64,000 nucleotides of DNA from Candidatus Heimdallarchaeum endolithica. GTDB lineage: Archaea; Asgardarchaeota; Heimdallarchaeia; Heimdallarchaeales; Heimdallarchaeaceae. The notes beneath the pieces are model-generated. The model worked only from the letters and a program-made list of their open reading frames with translations. It had not been told where the DNA came from and did no database searches. Within the stretch, counting starts at the first letter, position 1. Every line of letters starts with the position of its first letter. The position numbers were made by a program, and so were the translations under genes. This document shows, one piece after another, positions 84 through 55,828 of this stretch. The stretch covers positions 2,912,001-2,976,000 of the forward strand of contig CP084167.1 in assembly GCA_021513715.1 (NCBI GenBank). Direction: 5' to 3'.

Positions 84-3014
84 TTAATTTTCCTTACGGA
101 ACAATTGTTGCTTAACTGGTTCTGCATTAATTGTTAGAGAAGATACAATTATACCTAGTGTTAGAATGAATAAGGCAGCAAAAGCTCCTCCGGTTCTATA
201 AGAATCTGCTCTTCCTATTATTGAGAGGAAATCATTCTCGATATGTTTGGCAAGGTTTTCTGTAGAATAGAGCATATCTTCAAGCCAGAATAAGTTTGCC
301 ATATCTGCAGTAAGTTTAGGATAAGTTTGATGCCATGTTCTATACTTATACTGAACATCTTCAGTGTTTTCTACTGCATCCTCATCTAAAAATGGATAAT
401 ATTCTACGTATTGACCTGCATAGGTATTATATTGTACTCTATCTCTTCGTTCGAGAATTGTACCAGTTGTTGGGTCAGTGAAAATTTGTTGGAAGTGGAA
501 TTCATCACGTATAGAACCAGGAAATGTGTGAGTAATATAAATATCATCATTCTTCCAATCTGTACCATAAATTTCGTTCCATCTTCCTACATGAACAAAA
601 CTTTCATTTAGATAATCTGCATACTCTTGCCAATATAAGTCATATTGATCTACTTGTAGATAAGGTTGTTGTGTGTCTGCATAGTAAATGTATGCATCTC
701 TTCCATACATGATTGTTTTATCTCTAGCAGAATCAAAGATAAAGGGACGGAAGAAGTATTCAACCCATCTTTGTGTAAATCCTCTTACTGTATTTGGAGG
801 TAAAGCATTTAATGCATAAGTCTCACTGAATGGATCAAATTCCACTGTTTTCATTGGCCAATTATTTAATTGGACGAAAGAAGCTTTATCCCAAACTTCA
901 ACAAATGTTCTTAATTCATCTCTATGTAGCACATCACTAAATGAACCTGAAGAGTAAGTTACATGTATTAAACCTTTAGAACCATCAGCTAAGTAAATGT
1001 TATTGCCAGAAGCGTAAACATCAAATGCTTCTCCATCGCTGTCGTAAGTTGCTAAACTGGATAAGGAATTGACGTTAGAAGCATCTACTACAATTAACCC
1101 ATTTTCTCCTGCAGTTAGGTATAATAAATCATTGTCTTCGTATATATTAAAGAAACCATCAGAAGTACCAAAGTCATATGTTTCAATTTGTGTTAAAGTG
1201 TTTCCACTAATTGAATAGACTACAAGTCCTAAAGTAGCATCAAGAACATATAATGTTGAACCATCCAACAGTAATTGTGTTGCTCCAGGAAGAGAGACGT
1301 TTACTAATGAATCTAATGTTGAAGCATCAAAAACTTCTATTCCTCGACCTTGTTCAACAGCATAAACTTTTGTTCCATCAGTATTAATTGCAATAACAGG
1401 CGAATCAGTTTCTTTAAGGGTATTCAAGGAAATATCTCCACCATTTGTTGTTAGTTTAGCTAATCCATATTGTCCCATAGCAACGAATAATGAGGATTTT
1501 GTAGGATTATATTCAAGATCTAAAGCGTTTACATTTCCTCCGTTAGTCCAAACATTAATTTGTTCTATCTCTGAAAGATCAGCTAAATTTAATGAAACTA
1601 ATCCTTTTTCACCAGCTGCTACATATCCAAAATCGCCATATAAACTAGTTTCAAAAGCAATATCCTTGAAAGAGTAACCTTGTAATCTGTATCCTCCAAT
1701 TCCTAAAAATAAGGGGCTGGAAGTATTTACTATTCTGAAACCTCTGTTTCCTTCGATCACATAAGCGAAATCTCCATTCATCTCAACCTTGTAACTTTGT
1801 GATTTTTCAAAGGTGGGGATATTGCCAATTGCAATTATTTCATCTACTCTTGTAATATTTTCTCTGCCTGTTTTTACAGCGTATAATAAGTCTGTAGAAG
1901 GATCAAAGGTTTCGAATGATTGATTAACCAAGAAAGGATATTTTCTTCCTCCAAGGAGAGGATCTTCAATCCCTGTAACCCACTCTGTTGCTGTTCTTTC
2001 GCAAATATAAGATATTTTTCTGTCGTATAACCAAGTTAATGCAGGAGTACCTGTAAGATATCTAATGTATGAAGCGAAAGATTGAGCTTGTTTTAGTTCT
2101 TCTGGTGTATCAATATCATAAATTTCTGCTAACTTTTGTGTAACGTTAACAGTGAGAATTGAGGAGTCATAGCTTAAACCTTGAACTAAATCAAGGAAGT
2201 ATTTCATAGACCCAGCTTCTCCAGTGAATAGAGAATAGTCATGACCATCTGCAGTTAATGCATTAAAGAGAATTTTGTAGGCTGTCTCACTATCAAAATT
2301 AAGATCTGTGTGATCAGGACGTGAATTAATCCACATGTGAGGGCTATACTTAATGCTGTAAATTAGGTCATTATCTTGTGCATAATCTTTATTTAGTACA
2401 ATTTTAGCAATTTCGCTGTTATTGTATCCTAATTCTTCTAATTCACTTCGAATCATAAAACTTGCAACATAAGCTTGTAAACCATACTCTGAACCATTAC
2501 CGAAATTCTTTACATAATATGGCCAGAGGTAGTTATAATTAACAATTTTCTCATTACCTGTTAATGTTGAAAGCGTTTTGTTTAAAGTGTATTGCTTCCG
2601 TTCAGTGTAAACAACATAATCATTTTCTTCACTATAATCAACTATAAATTTCTTCATTTCTAAGTCAAATACTAGTTTTCCTGGAATTCCTATGTAAGTA
2701 ACTGGCGTATTTTTGTACAGGTATGCATTTCTGTCACTTATGTTGTAAAATTCTATATAGGTATGAGCGTAATAATTACTATCATCAGAGTATTTACCAA
2801 CATACATCCAATCAGAGTAATTGTCGCTTCCTCCTTCGTAAGGATCAAGGTCGTCTTCTGTAATCATACCATAGTTACTTAGTTTCTCTTCTATTTGATT
2901 ATTGATTCTGATAGTTTGAATTGGTAACATTACGCCAACTGCGATAGCTGATCCAGAAGTTAAAATTAAAATAAATATTCCTAACATTATACGGAATTTT
3001 TTCTGCATAGTCAT
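84..3014 (-). CDS. CD36/scavenger receptor class B-like two-TM membrane protein with inserted LVIVD-repeat beta-propeller
   Basis: N- and C-terminal TM helices. CD36-like motifs: YIEFYNISD (cf. yFFNvTN), ERTATEWVTGIEDPLL (cf. RTv.ElL.GY.DPll), FTDPTTGTILERRDRVQYN (cf. vEP.TG..l....RlQ.N), LFWLE. Central repeats such as AYVIEGNRGFRIVN, LYLTAGENGLIVVD, IYLADGSKGLIHV. Confidence 0.7.
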   Translation of the reverse strand: MTMQKKFRIMLGIFILILTSGSAIAVGVMLPIQTIRINNQIEEKLSNYGMITEDDLDPYEGGSDNYSDWMYVGKYSDDSNYYAHTYIEFYNISDRNAYLYKNTPVTYIGIPGKLVFDLEMKKFIVDYSEENDYVVYTERKQYTLNKTLSTLTGNEKIVNYNYLWPYYVKNFGNGSEYGLQAYVASFMIRSELEELGYNNSEIAKIVLNKDYAQDNDLIYSIKYSPHMWINSRPDHTDLNFDSETAYKILFNALTADGHDYSLFTGEAGSMKYFLDLVQGLSYDSSILTVNVTQKLAEIYDIDTPEELKQAQSFASYIRYLTGTPALTWLYDRKISYICERTATEWVTGIEDPLLGGRKYPFLVNQSFETFDPSTDLLYAVKTGRENITRVDEIIAIGNIPTFEKSQSYKVEMNGDFAYVIEGNRGFRIVNTSSPLFLGIGGYRLQGYSFKDIAFETSLYGDFGYVAAGEKGLVSLNLADLSEIEQINVWTNGGNVNALDLEYNPTKSSLFVAMGQYGLAKLTTNGGDISLNTLKETDSPVIAINTDGTKVYAVEQGRGIEVFDASTLDSLVNVSLPGATQLLLDGSTLYVLDATLGLVVYSISGNTLTQIETYDFGTSDGFFNIYEDNDLLYLTAGENGLIVVDASNVNSLSSLATYDSDGEAFDVYASGNNIYLADGSKGLIHVTYSSGSFSDVLHRDELRTFVEVWDKASFVQLNNWPMKTVEFDPFSETYALNALPPNTVRGFTQRWVEYFFRPFIFDSARDKTIMYGRDAYIYYADTQQPYLQVDQYDLYWQEYADYLNESFVHVGRWNEIYGTDWKNDDIYITHTFPGSIRDEFHFQQIFTDPTTGTILERRDRVQYNTYAGQYVEYYPFLDEDAVENTEDVQYKYRTWHQTYPKLTADMANLFWLEDMLYSTENLAKHIENDFLSIIGRADSYRTGGAFAALFILTLGIIVSSLTINAEPVKQQLFRKEN

Positions 3015-3252
3015 TTTCCTCGCAACAATATCTGTTTATGCTTCCGTCTCTTATGTCTATTTAAATGTAATGACATATTCACTAGACATATTGGACTAGA
3101 GACATTATCAGTGCAACGGAGAAATAAACAATTATATATTTTGTGTATGTGTTTTTTTTTAAGGAATCATATATTTAAAAGAATTTACAATATAATATGC
3201 GAAAAAATTTAAATTTTTAAGAAAGAGAAAAGAAAGAGAAATTAAGCAAATA

Positions 3253-4518
3253 TTATTCTTCTTTTACTTCGTCTTCATTTTCTATTGTAACATTCTCTTC
3301 TATTAGATAATGTTCCTTCTCAAACAGAGTGTCATATGACGATAAAAAGGAGGTACTAACAAGTTCTCCATTAGAATCATACTCTTTTATAATTGCTTTG
3401 TTTAATATTTTGAATGAATCAAGAATTTCTTGGGGAATAGTAATGAAAGAAAATATTCCTCTAATGACTGTTCCCCTTCTTCTATTGCTATTTATAGCAA
3501 AAAAAACATCTTTATTTGAGTATTTTTGTCTAAAAATCTTGTAGTTTGATACAGATAAACCATCGTTAGTTGTTTGGATACAGATAAAACCTCTTAAAGG
3601 TGGTTTATCAATTGGAATGTTTGTTGCTAAATTCTCAACTTTTAATAGATTTGAAAAATCATTAATTTGTTCGTAGATGTCGTAGGAGACTAGAGAACAA
3701 AGACCTTTTGCATCTTGAAAAACATGTTGAAAATCTGATAAGTCGTAGGTATAAAAGTCATTCTTTGAGATAGAAGATATCATAATATCAACTATTACAT
3801 TCATTACTCTATCTCTAAGTTTTGTTTTCAATTCAAGATAACCACTAGACGGATTATTTTCAACTAATTTATTATGGTCTAATAAGATGAAAGGAATTAA
3901 GACATTTTCTAAATTTATCAAATAAGAAATAAAACCTAATAAAGAAATTTTCTCGCTTAAATTTTGCCCTTCTATTGGTTTTTCAAGGACAACTATTGGA
4001 GTTTTCCCTTTTTCTTTAATAATAGGTAGGAGTTCCATTAACATTCCTAATAGAAAACTATCATTTCCAGTGAAAATAAAAACAATTGAAGCATCTTCTA
4101 CAGTATTTACGATCTTCTGTGAAATACTAGATTGATTTTCATCAAACCACTTTTTACCCAAAAGAAAAGTAGAATTTATAATATCTCTGTTAGGTAAACG
4201 GATAAAATGATTCTTGTTTTCATATTTATTCAATGTTTCTTCATTAGCAAATAATAAGGAATTGCTTTTTTTTATTCTCTTAACAAGAAAAGAATAGAAT
4301 TCACAACCTTCTCCCAAAAACAAAAATGCATAATTTTTTAGTTTCTCTTCCCCTTCAAAAAATAGAGTATCAGATAGTTCAGAACCAAAAAAAGGATTTT
4401 CATCATTTTTGTTATCTACAATAATTCTTTGAAATTCAAATTTGTACAATGGGTTGAACTTTTGTTTTCTTGTCCCTAAACTTGATTTTTTTCTTTTGAA
4501 TATTTTTTTCAAACTCAT
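3253..4518 (-). CDS. Highly divergent tubulin/FtsZ-fold protein lacking the GGGTG motif
   Basis: FtsZ/CetZ-like motif order: FLFLGEG, ASIVFIFTGNDS (position of GGGTG), IVVLEKPIEGQ, FILLDHNKL, YDLSDF (T7-like loop). Basic N-terminus. Confidence 0.5.
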   Translation of the reverse strand: MSLKKIFKRKKSSLGTRKQKFNPLYKFEFQRIIVDNKNDENPFFGSELSDTLFFEGEEKLKNYAFLFLGEGCEFYSFLVKRIKKSNSLLFANEETLNKYENKNHFIRLPNRDIINSTFLLGKKWFDENQSSISQKIVNTVEDASIVFIFTGNDSFLLGMLMELLPIIKEKGKTPIVVLEKPIEGQNLSEKISLLGFISYLINLENVLIPFILLDHNKLVENNPSSGYLELKTKLRDRVMNVIVDIMISSISKNDFYTYDLSDFQHVFQDAKGLCSLVSYDIYEQINDFSNLLKVENLATNIPIDKPPLRGFICIQTTNDGLSVSNYKIFRQKYSNKDVFFAINSNRRRGTVIRGIFSFITIPQEILDSFKILNKAIIKEYDSNGELVSTSFLSSYDTLFEKEHYLIEENVTIENEDEVKEE

Positions 4519-4587
4519 TTTGCAACACTTAACGAAACTTCATTTTATATTTTATTTATTGCTTTTTATTTCTATCGAAATGCAATG

Positions 4588-6000
4588 TTAATGTTTTCCT
4601 GCAAGTACTTCATTTGTATTAAATACTTGAATTGTGTTAGTTTTTCTTGGAATACCTAAATAACTTCCCCCTACTAATACAACTATATCATCATCCTTCA
4701 AATGTCCTTCGTTAATTAGACTTGAAATACAAGTGTAAACAAGTTGGTCGTAATCAGTTTCATATGTATGAAAAATAGGTTTCACTCCCCAATAAAGTTG
4801 CACTCTCCTCAATGTCCTTTTTTCTGGTGTAGAGGCAAATATAGGTAAACGCAATCTATATTTTGAAACCATCTGAGAACTATACCCTGTGCGTGTAAGT
4901 GCAATTATAGCTTTTGCAGAGAGGTTTTGAGCAATATCAACAGCAGCTTTTCCAATTGACTCTTCTATATTTTTTGCTTTACATTTTGGAATAAAAATAA
5001 GTTCGCTTTTTTCTGCTTCTCGAATTATTTGGTCCATTACTCTAATTACATTAACAGGATGGATACCTGTGGCTGTTTCTGCAGACAACATTACAGCGTC
5101 AGCTCCATCAAAAACAGCGTGAGCAACGTCACTAGCTTCAGCACGAGTTGGAATAGGTTCAATTGTCATTGATTCCAACATCTGTGTAGCAACAATTACA
5201 GGTTTACCAAGTTGCATTCCCATTTGAATGTATTGCTTTTGTAAAACAGGTACTTTTTCAGGACCAATTTCAATTCCTAAATCACCTCTAGCAACCATTA
5301 GTCCATCACAATTTTCCATGATGGATTTAATGTTTTTTACAGCATCAATATGCTCAATCTTTGCAATTATTGGGATATATTGTGATGTTGATGACTTTAT
5401 TATCTCCTTTATCTTTTTGATGTCTTCAACATCTCTTACGAAACTTATGAATAGATAATCTGCTTCTAGTTCACAAGCCTTTTCAATGTCTATTATGTCT
5501 TTTTTAGTTGGAACATGTAAAGTTAAATTTGAATCTGGAACGTTGACTCCTTTCCTTGTTGATATTATCCCTCCATCTCTAACAACACATTTAATTAAAT
5601 TTCCATCTATCTCCAAAACTTCTAGTTTTACTAATCCATCATTAATAAAAATAGGTGAACCTATTTTTACTTCTTTGTATAGATCTTTATAATTAACTGA
5701 AAAGTAGTTTTTTGTACTAATTATCGATTCGTCGTTTGTTATTGTCACCTTTTCACCAATTTCTAGTGAAACTGACTCTTTGAACTTTCCAATACGTATC
5801 TTAGGACCTGCTATGTCAATAGCTATTGCAATATTAGGGCAATTTTCTCTAATTCTGTTAAAAACTGTTTCATGCTCTTGATGTGTTCCATGGGAAAAGT
5901 TCAATCTAGCAATATTCATTCCTGTTTTTTCCATTTTTTTCAGCATTTCCACAGAATCAGATGATGGACCAATAGTACAAACAATTTTAGTCATTCTCAA
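4588..6000 (-). CDS. pyk: Pyruvate kinase
   Basis: TKIVCTIGP, ARLNFSHG, IIAKIE, MVARGDLG, ATQMLESM, DAVMLSAETA motifs. Confidence 0.97.
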   Translation of the reverse strand: MRMTKIVCTIGPSSDSVEMLKKMEKTGMNIARLNFSHGTHQEHETVFNRIRENCPNIAIAIDIAGPKIRIGKFKESVSLEIGEKVTITNDESIISTKNYFSVNYKDLYKEVKIGSPIFINDGLVKLEVLEIDGNLIKCVVRDGGIISTRKGVNVPDSNLTLHVPTKKDIIDIEKACELEADYLFISFVRDVEDIKKIKEIIKSSTSQYIPIIAKIEHIDAVKNIKSIMENCDGLMVARGDLGIEIGPEKVPVLQKQYIQMGMQLGKPVIVATQMLESMTIEPIPTRAEASDVAHAVFDGADAVMLSAETATGIHPVNVIRVMDQIIREAEKSELIFIPKCKAKNIEESIGKAAVDIAQNLSAKAIIALTRTGYSSQMVSKYRLRLPIFASTPEKRTLRRVQLYWGVKPIFHTYETDYDQLVYTCISSLINEGHLKDDDIVVLVGGSYLGIPRKTNTIQVFNTNEVLAGKH

Positions 6001-7519: not shown

Positions 7520-8659
7520 ATGTCGTTCTTAAAGAAACTTAGAAAAAAATCAATAGATATTGCAGTAATCGCTGTTGGTGATGCAGCCTGTACAATAGGA
7601 GCTAAATTTATTCAAAATTTAAAAGAAAATAAGATTAACGTGAAGTCTTTAGCAATAAATACAAAAAACAATTTTGAGTCCAAAATTTCTGACCCTTATA
7701 GTGACAAGTTTTGGTTTGCTGAACAATATTCTTCTACAAATCGTGATTTAGAATTGGCAAAAAAACTTTTTGAAGAAAGAAAAGAAGCTCTAACTGATAA
7801 ATTAAAAAATGTTGTTTTTTATCGCATAGATGACAAAAAACGAGAAGAAAAACTTGCTTTACATCTTATAATAGCTAGTGGAGGAGGAACTGGTTCAGCA
7901 GGTTCAATGATAGTAAGTAAAATAATTAAAGATATAACAGGTGAATCTCCGACAATAATCTTCATTGTTCCTGAAAAACATGAACCTTCAGTTGTTCAAT
8001 ATAATACAGCTACAGCTTTGTTCTATCTGGGATTTGATAGTCTAGGACCTAATTGTCCTACTATCCTATTTGATAATGAGAAACTAATCTCAGTTGATAA
8101 AACATTAAATATTAAGGATGCACTAGAATACTGTAATAACTATTTGGCTAATACACTCTCTACTACTATTTTAGCAGCTCTACAAGAATCTTCTCATGAA
8201 GAATTTAATGCGGGTTTAAATGATTTTTTCAAATCTTTTAGCTCTGAAGCAAAAGGAATAGGGGTCATTATTTCTGTAGATAAAACTTTTGAATCTTTAG
8301 AAAAAGCTCAAAATATTAGGTTTTCTGATATATTCTTTAAAGAATTAGAACTAACATCCAGTTTGACTGCGGATATCACAAAGGCAAGACTGGGTTTTCT
8401 ATCCATTATTGCTCCTCATTCCTATCAAACAACGTTTGAAACAAAAAAAATTGTAAAAAGATTTGAAAAAGGATCAATTAAGGTTTCATTAACATCATTA
8501 GAAGAGCCTATTCTTTTAATACGTGGAGTAATAACAGGGTTGCACCCTGATTTTATTGAGAGATTTTGGGATATTTTTGAACGTGCTAGGGATTCCAGAA
8601 AAGAGGTATTAATTCAAGAAGAGCAAATAAGAAACATGAAATTAGTTTTTTCCAACTAA
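7520..8659 (+). CDS. Divergent tubulin/FtsZ/CetZ-family GTPase
   Basis: IAVIAVGDAA (T1), LAINT, ASGGGTGSAG (tubulin signature), VPEKHE, YNTATAL, LFDNEKL. Confidence 0.8.
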   Translation: MSFLKKLRKKSIDIAVIAVGDAACTIGAKFIQNLKENKINVKSLAINTKNNFESKISDPYSDKFWFAEQYSSTNRDLELAKKLFEERKEALTDKLKNVVFYRIDDKKREEKLALHLIIASGGGTGSAGSMIVSKIIKDITGESPTIIFIVPEKHEPSVVQYNTATALFYLGFDSLGPNCPTILFDNEKLISVDKTLNIKDALEYCNNYLANTLSTTILAALQESSHEEFNAGLNDFFKSFSSEAKGIGVIISVDKTFESLEKAQNIRFSDIFFKELELTSSLTADITKARLGFLSIIAPHSYQTTFETKKIVKRFEKGSIKVSLTSLEEPILLIRGVITGLHPDFIERFWDIFERARDSRKEVLIQEEQIRNMKLVFSN

Positions 8660-8706: not shown

Positions 8707-10000
8707 TTGATTAATGACTATTTAAATCCAAAAAAAGTAGGTAAAAAACTCCAAAGGAGAATTAAAGGAAAAGTAGTTTGGGACAAAGTTTCTAGATACT
8801 TGTATTCTACTGATGCTAGTATCTATAAACTTATGCCCTTAATTGTTGCTCAACCTACATGTACAGAAGGTGTCCAAGAAATAGTAAAATTTTGTAATAA
8901 ATACAAACTCTCTATTCACCCTCGAGGTGCAGGGACTGGGTTGGGAGGACAAGCTTTGGGAGAAGGTGTGGTAATAGATTTTGCTAGATTTATGCGAAAT
9001 ATTATAGAAATTAATCCTGAAGAAGACTATGTTTGGACTGAGGTAGGAATAAAGGGAGCTCCCTTACAAAAAAGTTTAGGAGAATATAATAAATACATAC
9101 CTCCAGATCCAAGTAGTCAGGATTATGCTACTTTAGGTGGAATGATTTCAAACAATGCTTCTGGTTCTCATTCTGTTAAATATGGTGATTACGATAAATG
9201 GGTTGAAGAATTAGAGGTTGTTCTTGCAGATGGGAACGTAATTTATACAAAAGAGTACGATATTGAGAGTGAAGAGTTTAATAAAGTATTAGAAAAGGGA
9301 ACATTAGAATCAAGCATATACAAAAACTTGTTAGAACTTTGGAAAAAGAATGAAGAAAAAATAAAGAATGCATATCCACCTGTACTGCATAACGTAACAG
9401 GATATGAGCTTAGAAAATTTATTTATGATGGAAAAATAAATCTTATAAGGTTGTTTGTAGGTTCTGAAGGTACATTCGGAGTTATAACAAAAGCAAAAAT
9501 GAGAATAGAGACCAAACCAAAATACAAAGTTCTTTCAACAGTCTATTTTAGTGATTTAGTAAAAGCAGGAAAAGCAATTCAATATATCTTGGAGCAAGAA
9601 CCAGCAGCCATTGAATTATTAGGTGAAAAACTACTAAGTATGGCAAGAGAAAGATACCCTTCTCTAAATAAGAAACTACTTAAAGAATTAGATACAATGC
9701 TGTTAGTCGAATTTGAAGAGGATGACCTTGAAGAATGCAAAAAGCAAACTGAAATTACAAAAAAGAAAGTCACTCAAACTGAGAAACTAGCTTTTGAATT
9801 TCTCTCTGCAGAAGATCCAGAAGAACAAGCAAATTTATGGGCGGCTAGAAAGTCAGCAGTACCACTTTTGTATAAAATTAAAGGCGATAGAAAAATAATT
9901 GCACTTATTGAAGACGTAGTTGTTCCTCCAGAGCATCTAGCAAAGTATGTCATAGAACTAGAAACTGTATGTAAAGATCTGGTGGTTGAATTTATAGCCT
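8707..10000 (+). pseudogene. Truncated FAD-linked oxidase (GlcD/D-lactate dehydrogenase-like), cut by a structured-RNA cassette
   Basis: YSTDASIY, PRGAGTGLGG, TLGGMISNNASG, GSEGTFG, EDVVVP. Similarity stops at EFIAY, just before the expected GHAGDGNLH; the ORF runs on into the cassette to a stop at 10059. Confidence 0.8.
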
Positions 10001-10219
10001 ATGAGTTGAAATTTTACTTAATTTCTTCAGGACTCTCCCCAACCAACCAACAAACTTAGCGAAAGTTGTGAAGACTGGCTTAAGAGAACATGAAAGACAC
10101 AGTCTTAATTAAGTTCTCTAAGGGGTTCATCTCCTTATCCCGGGCACTCATAACTCCCAAAGGGAAGACCGGGTGTCGTAGGAATGAAACCTACGTCTTT
10201 AAGCATATAGCTCAAGACA
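10001..10219 (-). ncRNA. Putative structured ncRNA cassette, copy A (omega/reRNA-like)
   Basis: Reverse complement aligns with 55621-55828. Multiple hairpins; TTTATATA box ~21 nt upstream of the first hairpin; conserved end ...CAACTCAT. Confidence 0.65.
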
Positions 10220-10348
10220 CTAGACAAATGAGAATTAAATATATAAAGATAGCTGAAAAGTTGTTATACTCCCCAATATTTTGTATTTTTTATTTATGCA
10301 AATGTGTTTCAGGTTGTTATTGGTCTAATAACTCCACAAACTAAAAAT

Positions 10349-10680
10349 TTAGTTTTTTACGTAAAAAAGTATCGTATGTTCGATTTGCATTTTACATGTC
10401 GGGCAATCTGTAACAGCAACATCAATATCTTCCTTCTTTACTGCATTAAAAAGCCAATGCCCAATTTTCATTGAAGTTTCATAATTTTCTTTTTTCATAC
10501 CCCAACTCCCAGAAACACCACAACATGTATTAGTCCCCTTTTCAACTTCAAGTTCTGGTATTTTATTGAGTAGATCAAAGGAAACAGTTGTAATATCTCT
10601 TTGTGCTTTCAAGTGACATGACGTATGATAGAGTACTTTTGTTTTTTCTGGATTAAACTCTACATTTGCTTTGTTTTCTT
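10349..10680 (-). pseudogene. C-terminal CCG-domain fragment of an Fe-S oxidoreductase (GlpC/GlcF-like)
   Basis: YHTSCHL, TCCGVSGSWG and TDCPTCKMQI motifs. No proper N-terminus; inverted relative to the truncated FAD oxidase. Confidence 0.7.
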
Positions 10681-10774
10681 TTAATAATTTATCAACAAAT
10701 TTAATCTTCTTTTTTTATTTTTTTTTCAAATAGCAAAGAATTTATAGTTCTATCTGAGCATATAGTTGTTTAAC

Positions 10775-27484: not shown

Positions 27485-28138
27485 CAACATAATAAATTTG
27501 TGTAGTTAAATTTTTATCTAAATTTCTTAACAAACTTGGTTCTTTATTGAAAGAATAGTAATTAATCTTTATAAGATGCGAGTAGCTCAGTATTACTATT
27601 CCTTTAAACTATAAAATATGTTGATACGAAGTGTATCTTAATCTTTAATAATGATAAAGAGAAAAGTATAAAATTAACAAAGAGGGAAACAATTGGAATT
27701 GCTAGGTATAAACTTTTTACCTTCAATCGAAATATCCTTGAAAAGAAAAGAAAGAATCAAAGAAAGTAAAAGTCAACTAGTTTTAGGATATCATGAAGAG
27801 CTTTTTTTACATTTTTGTCAAATTAAAAAATTGGTGTTTAAATAGTGAAAAGACATTATTAATGTAGAGAGTGAAAAAAAAGATAGATGTTAAGAAAAAT
27901 ACTTACTCTCTAAGCTGGCACAACGTGTCAGGATAAAAAAAACATGCGCATAAAGAAAGAAATCAAAGAAAAGTTGAATACGACTTAACTTTCCCGTGTG
28001 AGAGGATTTATTCATCCAGTTTCCACGGTGGAGGAGTGCTCAACCTTCTCCTCTGGCTCAATGAGTGTTTAGATCTCCCTCCTAGACAGATCTTTCCGAG
28101 AGCAAGATTGGCGTACAAAAATATTGTACAAAAATTAA

Positions 28139-28330
28139 GTTGATGAAGAAAAAATAGCTCTTAAACTTAAAGAAATACTTAGTTGGATTGAACCTTATGG
28201 AAAAATATGTTTCTTGCTCTCTGATAGAAATTCTATGTTTGCATATAGATCCGTTCCTGCTCTATACTATAACCAAGTAGAAAACCTCTTTTCTCTAGTA
28301 TTTCTGTTTCTCTTGACATGTATAAACTAA
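28139..28330 (+). pseudogene. Possible relic of a class II glutamine amidotransferase (YafJ-like)
   Basis: Start-less frame translates ...YGKICFLLSDRNSMFAYRS, resembling NFLLSDG..LFAY. Confidence 0.35.
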
Positions 28331-55114: not shown

Positions 55115-55620
55115 ATCTAATCCCCATCTATTTGAACCCCGAAACGATCTTCAAGTAAATGGATAAGATAAATCGAATATTAAGAAGACAATCTTCTTGT
55201 TTAATATTCAAATTTATTTTATTTGTTTATTTATTTATTTTACATGAAGATTTTATTAAGCTAATAATAGCAATAGAGATATATAATAATATCGTTTCTA
55301 CTTGGAATAAGATAAATAAAAAAAAAGAATTCTGAAGTGAAAGTTGTGAAATTAAAAATAAAAAATCACAAAAAAAGGACTGTTTTATACAAAAAAGAAA
55401 AAAAGAGTATAAGAACATTAGGATAAACTTTAAGGAATGTTACTTAAAAAGAGTAGATGAGACACATGAAATAATTTTTTACGTAAATTTTGAGACAATG
55501 GTATGTTAGATAGACAGAAGGAATGAAAAGAATTCAATGAAAAAGAAAGCACAGACTCAAAACAATAAACATGACACAATTTTTTTGTAGCCGTTATATA
55601 TTCAATTCTCATTTATTATT

Positions 55621-55828
55621 TGTCTTGAGCTATATGCTTTAAGACGTAGGTTTCATTCTTACGACACCCGGGCTTCCCATTGGGAACTATGAGTGCCGGG
55701 ATCAGGAGATGAACCCTTTAGAGAACCATAGTAGACTGTGTCTCTTGTTCTCTTAAACCAGTCTTAACAAATAGTGTTTTATCTGGTTGGGTAGAGTCCT
55801 GAAGAAATTAAGTAAAATCTCAACTCAT
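55621..55828 (+). ncRNA. Putative structured ncRNA cassette, copy B (omega/reRNA-like)
   Basis: Homologous to 10001-10219 (reverse strand); GTTATATA box at ~55593-55600; conserved stems; ends ...CAACTCAT. Confidence 0.65.

Follow-up and report, generated by a model that had tools for sequence, protein, structure and literature searches.

A protein-free mobile mini-element of Candidatus Heimdallarchaeum endolithica with inverted ends, an AT core and a putative TnpB omegaRNA scaffold

Elements that bear an omegaRNA, encode no protein and are served in trans have been described (PMC10055086); PMC10691335 mentions solo tnpB elements that are moved in trans as well as Asgard tnpB loci flanked by repeats. 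Here we analysed a stretch of 64,000 nucleotides of the Candidatus Heimdallarchaeum endolithica genome (the window), for which a preliminary description had reported a stand-alone structured RNA cassette in two diverged copies. These two homologous stretches are present and align, and their RNA parts are 89% identical. The region 10001-10378, however, is not an isolated RNA cassette: it is a non-autonomous, protein-free mobile mini-element of 378 bp (copy A). Its features are listed in Table 1.

Table 1. Features of the mini-elements and of the broken gene around copy A
Feature	Position in window	Strand	Remarks
Whole mini-element copy A, CAT to CAT	10001..10378	minus	378 bp; aligned across 18 copies with unrelated flanks
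Whole mini-element copy B, diverged subfamily	55465..55828	plus	364 bp; RNA 55621-55828, TATA about 55594-55600
Left end: junction CAT and subterminal repeat with TTTTACGTAA core	10353..10378	minus	
Right end: inverted repeat within terminal hairpin, followed by ACTCAT (junction and pseudoknot 3' strand)	10001..10025	minus	
Putative omegaRNA scaffold, 219 nt	10001..10219	minus	Two 5' hairpins, pseudoknot-loop stem, K-turn-like multibranch domain, terminal hairpin
Predicted archaeal TATA box	10240..10247	minus	28 nt before first helix; same spacing in 17/18 copies by pattern, copy B by eye
5' hairpin	10196..10219	minus	Homologous to last tnpB codons (V-L-S-Q-W-L) of related elements
Pseudoknot 5' strand ATGAGT	10146..10151	minus	Pairs with 10006-10001; compensatory changes across families
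Right flank, putative guide	9981..10000	minus	Antisense to broken FAD-oxidase gene
FAD-oxidase/GlpC-like gene, 5' half	8707..10000	plus	Cut at right end of element; frame of 997 aa in sister species
FAD-oxidase/GlpC-like gene, inverted 3' fragment (CCG domain)	10379..10701	minus	Joined to left end of element
Second gene-less mini family copy, CATG...GATG ends	27792-28145	plus	Putative omegaRNA of the 445-aa T2 TnpB

Instead of two copies, a genome-wide search revealed 18 full copies (364-382 bp) and seven fragments, and there were 11 matches in the sister species (H. aukensis, the one other genome of the genus). The closest copy pairs are 99.7% identical. Homology had been thought to start at the promoter; it runs about 130 nt further, to a left end at 10378. 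All 18 copies start and end with CAT, and TTTTACGTAA is present in inverted orientation 8-9 bases inside each end. The upstream box TTTTTTACGTAAA that had been noticed in both copies is indeed there and corresponds to the left subterminal inverted repeat. When junction bases were tallied over 65 elements of all related families, with AT itself being part of the search pattern, the base preceding the left AT was C in 61 (63 after two mis-parsed rows) and the base following the right AT was G in 42 and A in 17. A second mini family ends with GAT (CATG...GATG), which leaves AT as the only sequence that the two junctions have in common. There is co-variation between the first base on the inner side of the left end and the base that opens the right flank (20/29; permutation p 0.0065, uncorrected for kinship). 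The RNA part diverges by 5.7% across copies versus 14% for the left arm, a comparison in which conservation of the right end is inflated because DNA repeat and RNA both impose constraints there. An antisense ORF of 84 aa (10090-10344) gave no Pfam hit and was taken as chance. Together, these results show that the mini-element is multicopy, has recently spread, and has fixed ends with AT at both junctions.

The target is C-AT-(G). Three orthologous empty sites in the sister species, that of copy B included, keep one CAT, and there the sister genome aligns without gaps once the element and one CAT are removed. In-silico removal of the element restored an ORF in eight further copies, and most of the tested insertion sites are empty in the sister species. 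A four-base duplication was considered and is ruled out by copy B, which has G on the left and A on the right at an unrearranged site, and by the GAT end of the second family. The flanks of copy A are hybrid: what is a single 997-aa frame in the sister species is cut here, with 326 bp inverted and about 1.3 kb lost, as would be expected from recombination between two inverted copies. A Tubulin/FtsZ-family GTPase gene lies upstream of the broken oxidase gene (7520-8659, plus strand).

The elements also insert into one another and seed rearrangements. One copy splits the only Y1 tnpA of the genome at codon 2-3; this tnpA belongs to an otherwise complete IS605 element with its own tnpB (L009, about 2900-4950). 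Three further observations were made at related loci. Several fragments (L013, L014, L047, L049 and L043/L172) begin exactly at element-internal CATG/ATG sites; a T2 element (see below) is joined to a mini-element fragment at the pseudoknot loop; and in a metagenome allele of site A (L145, about 3000-3400) the 3' part lies inverted, with the internal ATGAGT and the terminal ACTCAT as limits of the inversion, which reflects either real recombination or an assembly artefact.

All the stems named previously are present in the RNA part, and the internal ATGAGT is complementary to the terminal ACTCAT as had been proposed. A TATA-like box does precede the 5' hairpin, starting 28 nt and not about 21 nt before it. 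The distance from TATA box to first helix is 26-28 nt in three independent mini-element lineages, which is the usual archaeal spacing. The z-score for single-sequence folding is only about -2. In a consensus structure based on 14 copies, 96.9% of cells are paired versus 34-51% in slid controls, and six pairs show double changes (0 of 500 shuffles, with relatedness of the 14 copies uncorrected). The pseudoknot has undergone two compensatory changes (ATGAGT/ACTCAT to ATGATT/AATCAT and to ATAAGT/ACTTAT), and the variable flank follows directly on these pseudoknot-forming last bases of the scaffold. A TGA/GAG loop is found in 18 of 19 tabulated RNAs but has an extra G on the non-bulged strand; we call it K-turn-like. 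No Rfam family matched the RNA at the gathering threshold.

To place the RNA we used a covariance model, R1, built solely from 14 mini-element RNAs. R1 matched the 3' non-coding region directly behind a clade of Heimdallarchaeaceae TnpBs, mostly up to the terminal CAT, with 40-52 bits (E 1e-9 to 1e-13) in other genera, 28-34 bits (E 1e-6 to 1e-7) for the T1 elements of the genus itself, and E about 1e-4 for T1b with filters off. It did not match at T2 TnpB, IS605 TnpB or Thorarchaeal loci, and over 83 genomes of the class it matched only in Heimdallarchaeaceae. Overlap with a tnpB 3' end had been suggested as a check; the homologous RNA indeed lies at the tnpB 3' end and stops at the right end of the element. 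At the level of sequence, these matches show homology between the inner 219 nt and the predicted RNA behind a TnpB clade having a rearranged and invariant RuvC triad. The RNA is therefore, judged by homology, a TnpB omegaRNA scaffold behind a predicted TATA box, with a putative guide provided by the right flank of each copy.

Three kinds of TnpB-only elements in the genome share the end type of the mini-element. T1 is about 1.85 kb long, encodes a protein of 483 aa and has eight full-length frames (one at genome 1755894-1757345); T1b has two (one at genome 709208-710725), and the T2 protein measures 445 aa. D241, E399 and D433 of T1 are invariant in 51 homologs, and the glutamate lies seven residues before the zinc finger, the placement of the rearranged RuvC-II of PMC10530073 and PMC10711439. 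The predicted T1 model matches Cas12f and TnpB structures. The common end type is shared by two TnpB clades that are about 25% identical, which points to a protein that reads the DNA ends. None of the ten full-length clade tnpB genes carries the RNA subtype of the mini-element, and a tnpB with exactly this subtype was found neither in the genome nor elsewhere; nine metagenome matches likewise yielded no parent tnpB with the mini-element RNA. These ten genes could still serve in trans. The mini-element RNA scores higher against a TnpB subclade that is absent here (42% protein identity to T1) and its cognate tnpB was not found, so that loading of T1 or T1b with it is an assumption. Gene-less derivatives are not confined to one family. 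In independent minis of four other genomes, the left end and TATA/promoter run directly into the last tnpB codons. The second mini family, present here in seven copies, has a TATA box of its own together with the RNA of T2 TnpB. Promoter and full RNA are retained in all amplified mini families seen.

Two groups of tnpB loci are organized differently. At 31 Thorarchaeia loci (L081-L135) a clade tnpB is divergent beside an ORF of >1250 aa with a PD-(D/E)xK-like motif, for which no Pfam or atlas match was obtained; this pair is possibly a domesticated system. In a sister subclade (L298-L312) inverted ends are lacking and there is a structured leader of 300-450 nt. Its members lie behind a HerA/CedD-like ATPase gene that is either complete or reduced to 3' remnants, an arrangement present several times per genome, and the stop codon of the ATPase gene overlaps a TCAT junction.

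We consider it probable that the mini-element is a non-autonomous, omegaRNA-only derivative of a Heimdallarchaeaceae TnpB-only mobile element and that its RNA is a selfish retention or homing device. A transposase or recombinase encoded elsewhere would recognise the subterminal repeats and move the element at the AT core. The promoter of the element would drive an RNA running through the right end into the flank, giving each copy its own guide. A clade TnpB from other elements would bind this scaffold, read a CAT-like motif and cut alleles that never had the element or no longer have it, and repair from the element-bearing chromosome would restore it, by analogy with the system of PMC10055086. 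None of the 24 guides has a CAT-flanked match with two or fewer mismatches elsewhere in the genome, and neither a target for the guide of copy A nor the scaffold itself was found in viral contigs. Since no guide has another genomic target, selfish homing or retention is favoured over host regulation. Thus, of the protein-free guide cassette with an effector elsewhere that was originally envisaged, the promoter-bearing TnpB-type scaffold stands, given the R1 matches behind tnpB and the TATA spacing; a stand-alone host cassette with a programmed guide is not supported, as the element is mobile, breaks genes and takes arbitrary flanks as guides.

We then considered which enzyme could move the element. 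Membership of IS200/IS605 had been suspected, but the ends are inverted repeats and those of the resident IS605 are different; the only Y1 tnpA is the one broken by a mini-element copy. No IS110 catalytic domain and no IS630 domain were found in the genome. Its three cas1 genes are all in CRISPR operons, and the sole tyrosine recombinase/integrase match is at a prophage edge. The resident IS481-, IS4/5- and IS6-like elements were rejected as mobilisers on account of their different ends, and the IS607 elements of relatives are unrelated, having other TnpBs and other ends. No transposase lies beside the clade tnpB at more than 80 clade loci, or at 13 T2 loci. There are two short stand-alone serine recombinases with intact catalytic motifs (L021:1201-1950 and L020:1213-2046; genome 405348-406097 and 316728-317561), around which we found no such repeats and no convincing junction-like site. 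One of them is conserved at about 75% across Heimdallarchaeaceae, being present in 28 of the 30 other genomes of this family, and a search with it as query did not find it elsewhere in the class; its range matches that of the elements, which amounts to one shared lineage and not to independent evidence. A serine recombinase would suit the two-base core, the scarless site and the variable outer bases of the left end. The strong conservation may reflect a housekeeping role, possibly in chromosome resolution, and the mobiliser may instead be a DDE enzyme whose insertions duplicate the 2-bp AT. We put forward only tentatively, as a rather doubtful proposal, that these TnpB-only and RNA-only elements form a distinct class with inverted ends and AT core that nowhere has a dedicated transposase and owes its movement to an enzyme fixed in the host, such as the conserved short serine recombinase; a direct link between this recombinase and the element ends was not found.

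The RNA might also be an orphan scaffold, unloaded since loss of its cognate tnpB, with the element spreading as a plain MITE and the structure being merely inherited. The failure to find the cognate gene and the greater distance of the T1 RNAs of the same genome agree with this. We nevertheless think it unlikely, because conservation of the RNA exceeds that of the left arm 2.5-fold, pairing is kept in diverged copies of two species, and promoter and full RNA have been retained in each amplified mini family. The same retention, i.e. that no RNA-less mini family was amplified, would be expected if the RNA were needed for movement, either in a bridge-RNA-like manner or in a TnpB-assisted step in which a TnpB-RNA complex aids another enzyme. 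This would also fit the fact that the genome, although closed and containing recent copies by the dozen, has no cognate transposase. It would likewise fit the loop ATGAGT, which mirrors the terminus, and the L145 allele of site A, whose inversion is bounded by these motifs. Such a role is very unlikely, however, as the targets share only C-AT-(G) and not 11-14 nt, the IS110 catalytic domain is absent, and the same end type occurs in both TnpB clades. Finally, domesticated guide cassettes for host regulation or defence would explain the own promoter, the conserved fold and the fixation of clade members next to host-like genes in Thorarchaeia, but are hardly credible for copies that break genes, whose tested sites are mostly empty in the sister species and whose guides lack genomic matches.

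If the RNA is indeed a selfish retention or homing device, the archaea most closely related to eukaryotes would possess a natural RNA-guided system in two parts, in which a self-promoted scaffold is separated from the nuclease gene. This separation appears to have occurred at least three times; the predicted motif, CAT, is short, and the arrangement resembles that of TIR-bounded, RuvC-rearranged Fanzors. The system opens two questions to experiment: can TnpB use non-cognate scaffolds in trans, and by which enzyme are AT-core elements moved? It also accounts for gene breakage and inversions in Heimdallarchaeum genomes.

How, then, does the mini-element compare with known systems? Like the PATE-like or minimal IS200/IS605 elements (Geobacillus ISGst; PMC10055086), it is protein-less with a right-end omegaRNA and a flank guide, and would need TnpB and transposase in trans; it has no protein gene, is mobile and makes no target duplication beyond the motif, the features by which a PATE is recognised. 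It differs in having inverted repeats round an AT core instead of asymmetric Y1 hairpins, and a dedicated TATA box before the RNA. With IS607 (serine TnpA plus TnpB; CboIStron, bioRxiv 10.1101/2023.11.20.567912) it shares a two-base core at both junctions and a scarless empty site, although a 2-bp duplication looks the same, as well as a preference upstream of the core and subterminal repeat units that lie at some distance from the junction. Its core is AT and not GG, its ends are symmetric, no IS607-type TnpA is present in the genome or beside any clade tnpB examined, and a parent with an HTH-resolvase TnpA and the same ends was not found. Inverted ends, a RuvC-II-rearranged nuclease and an RNA overlapping the right repeat are shared with DDE-associated TnpB/Fanzor in TIR transposons (IS630 DDE-6; PMC10691335, PMC10711439), from which it departs by AT instead of TA, variable outermost left-end bases, the missing DPG motif and the absence of IS630 domains from the genome. 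Unlike IS110/IS1111 with their bridge RNA, there is neither an IS110 recombinase nor an RNA-specified target of 11-14 nt. The aCas1-associated Asgard TnpBs (PMC10691335), as far as a comparison by description only allows, are likewise repeat-flanked with an ACTCA-containing downstream motif, but no cas1 lies beside any locus seen here. An inverted-repeat/AT-core family was not described in the literature searched, and the main text of PMC8813620 does not mention tnpB. In summary, the mini-element would work like an omegaRNA PATE, its core resembles that of IS607 and its inverted ends those of DDE elements, and it lacks a defining feature of each of IS200/IS605, IS607, IS630 and IS110; omegaRNA-only (PATE-like) elements were known already, and what is new to the literature searched is the inverted-repeat/AT-core architecture.
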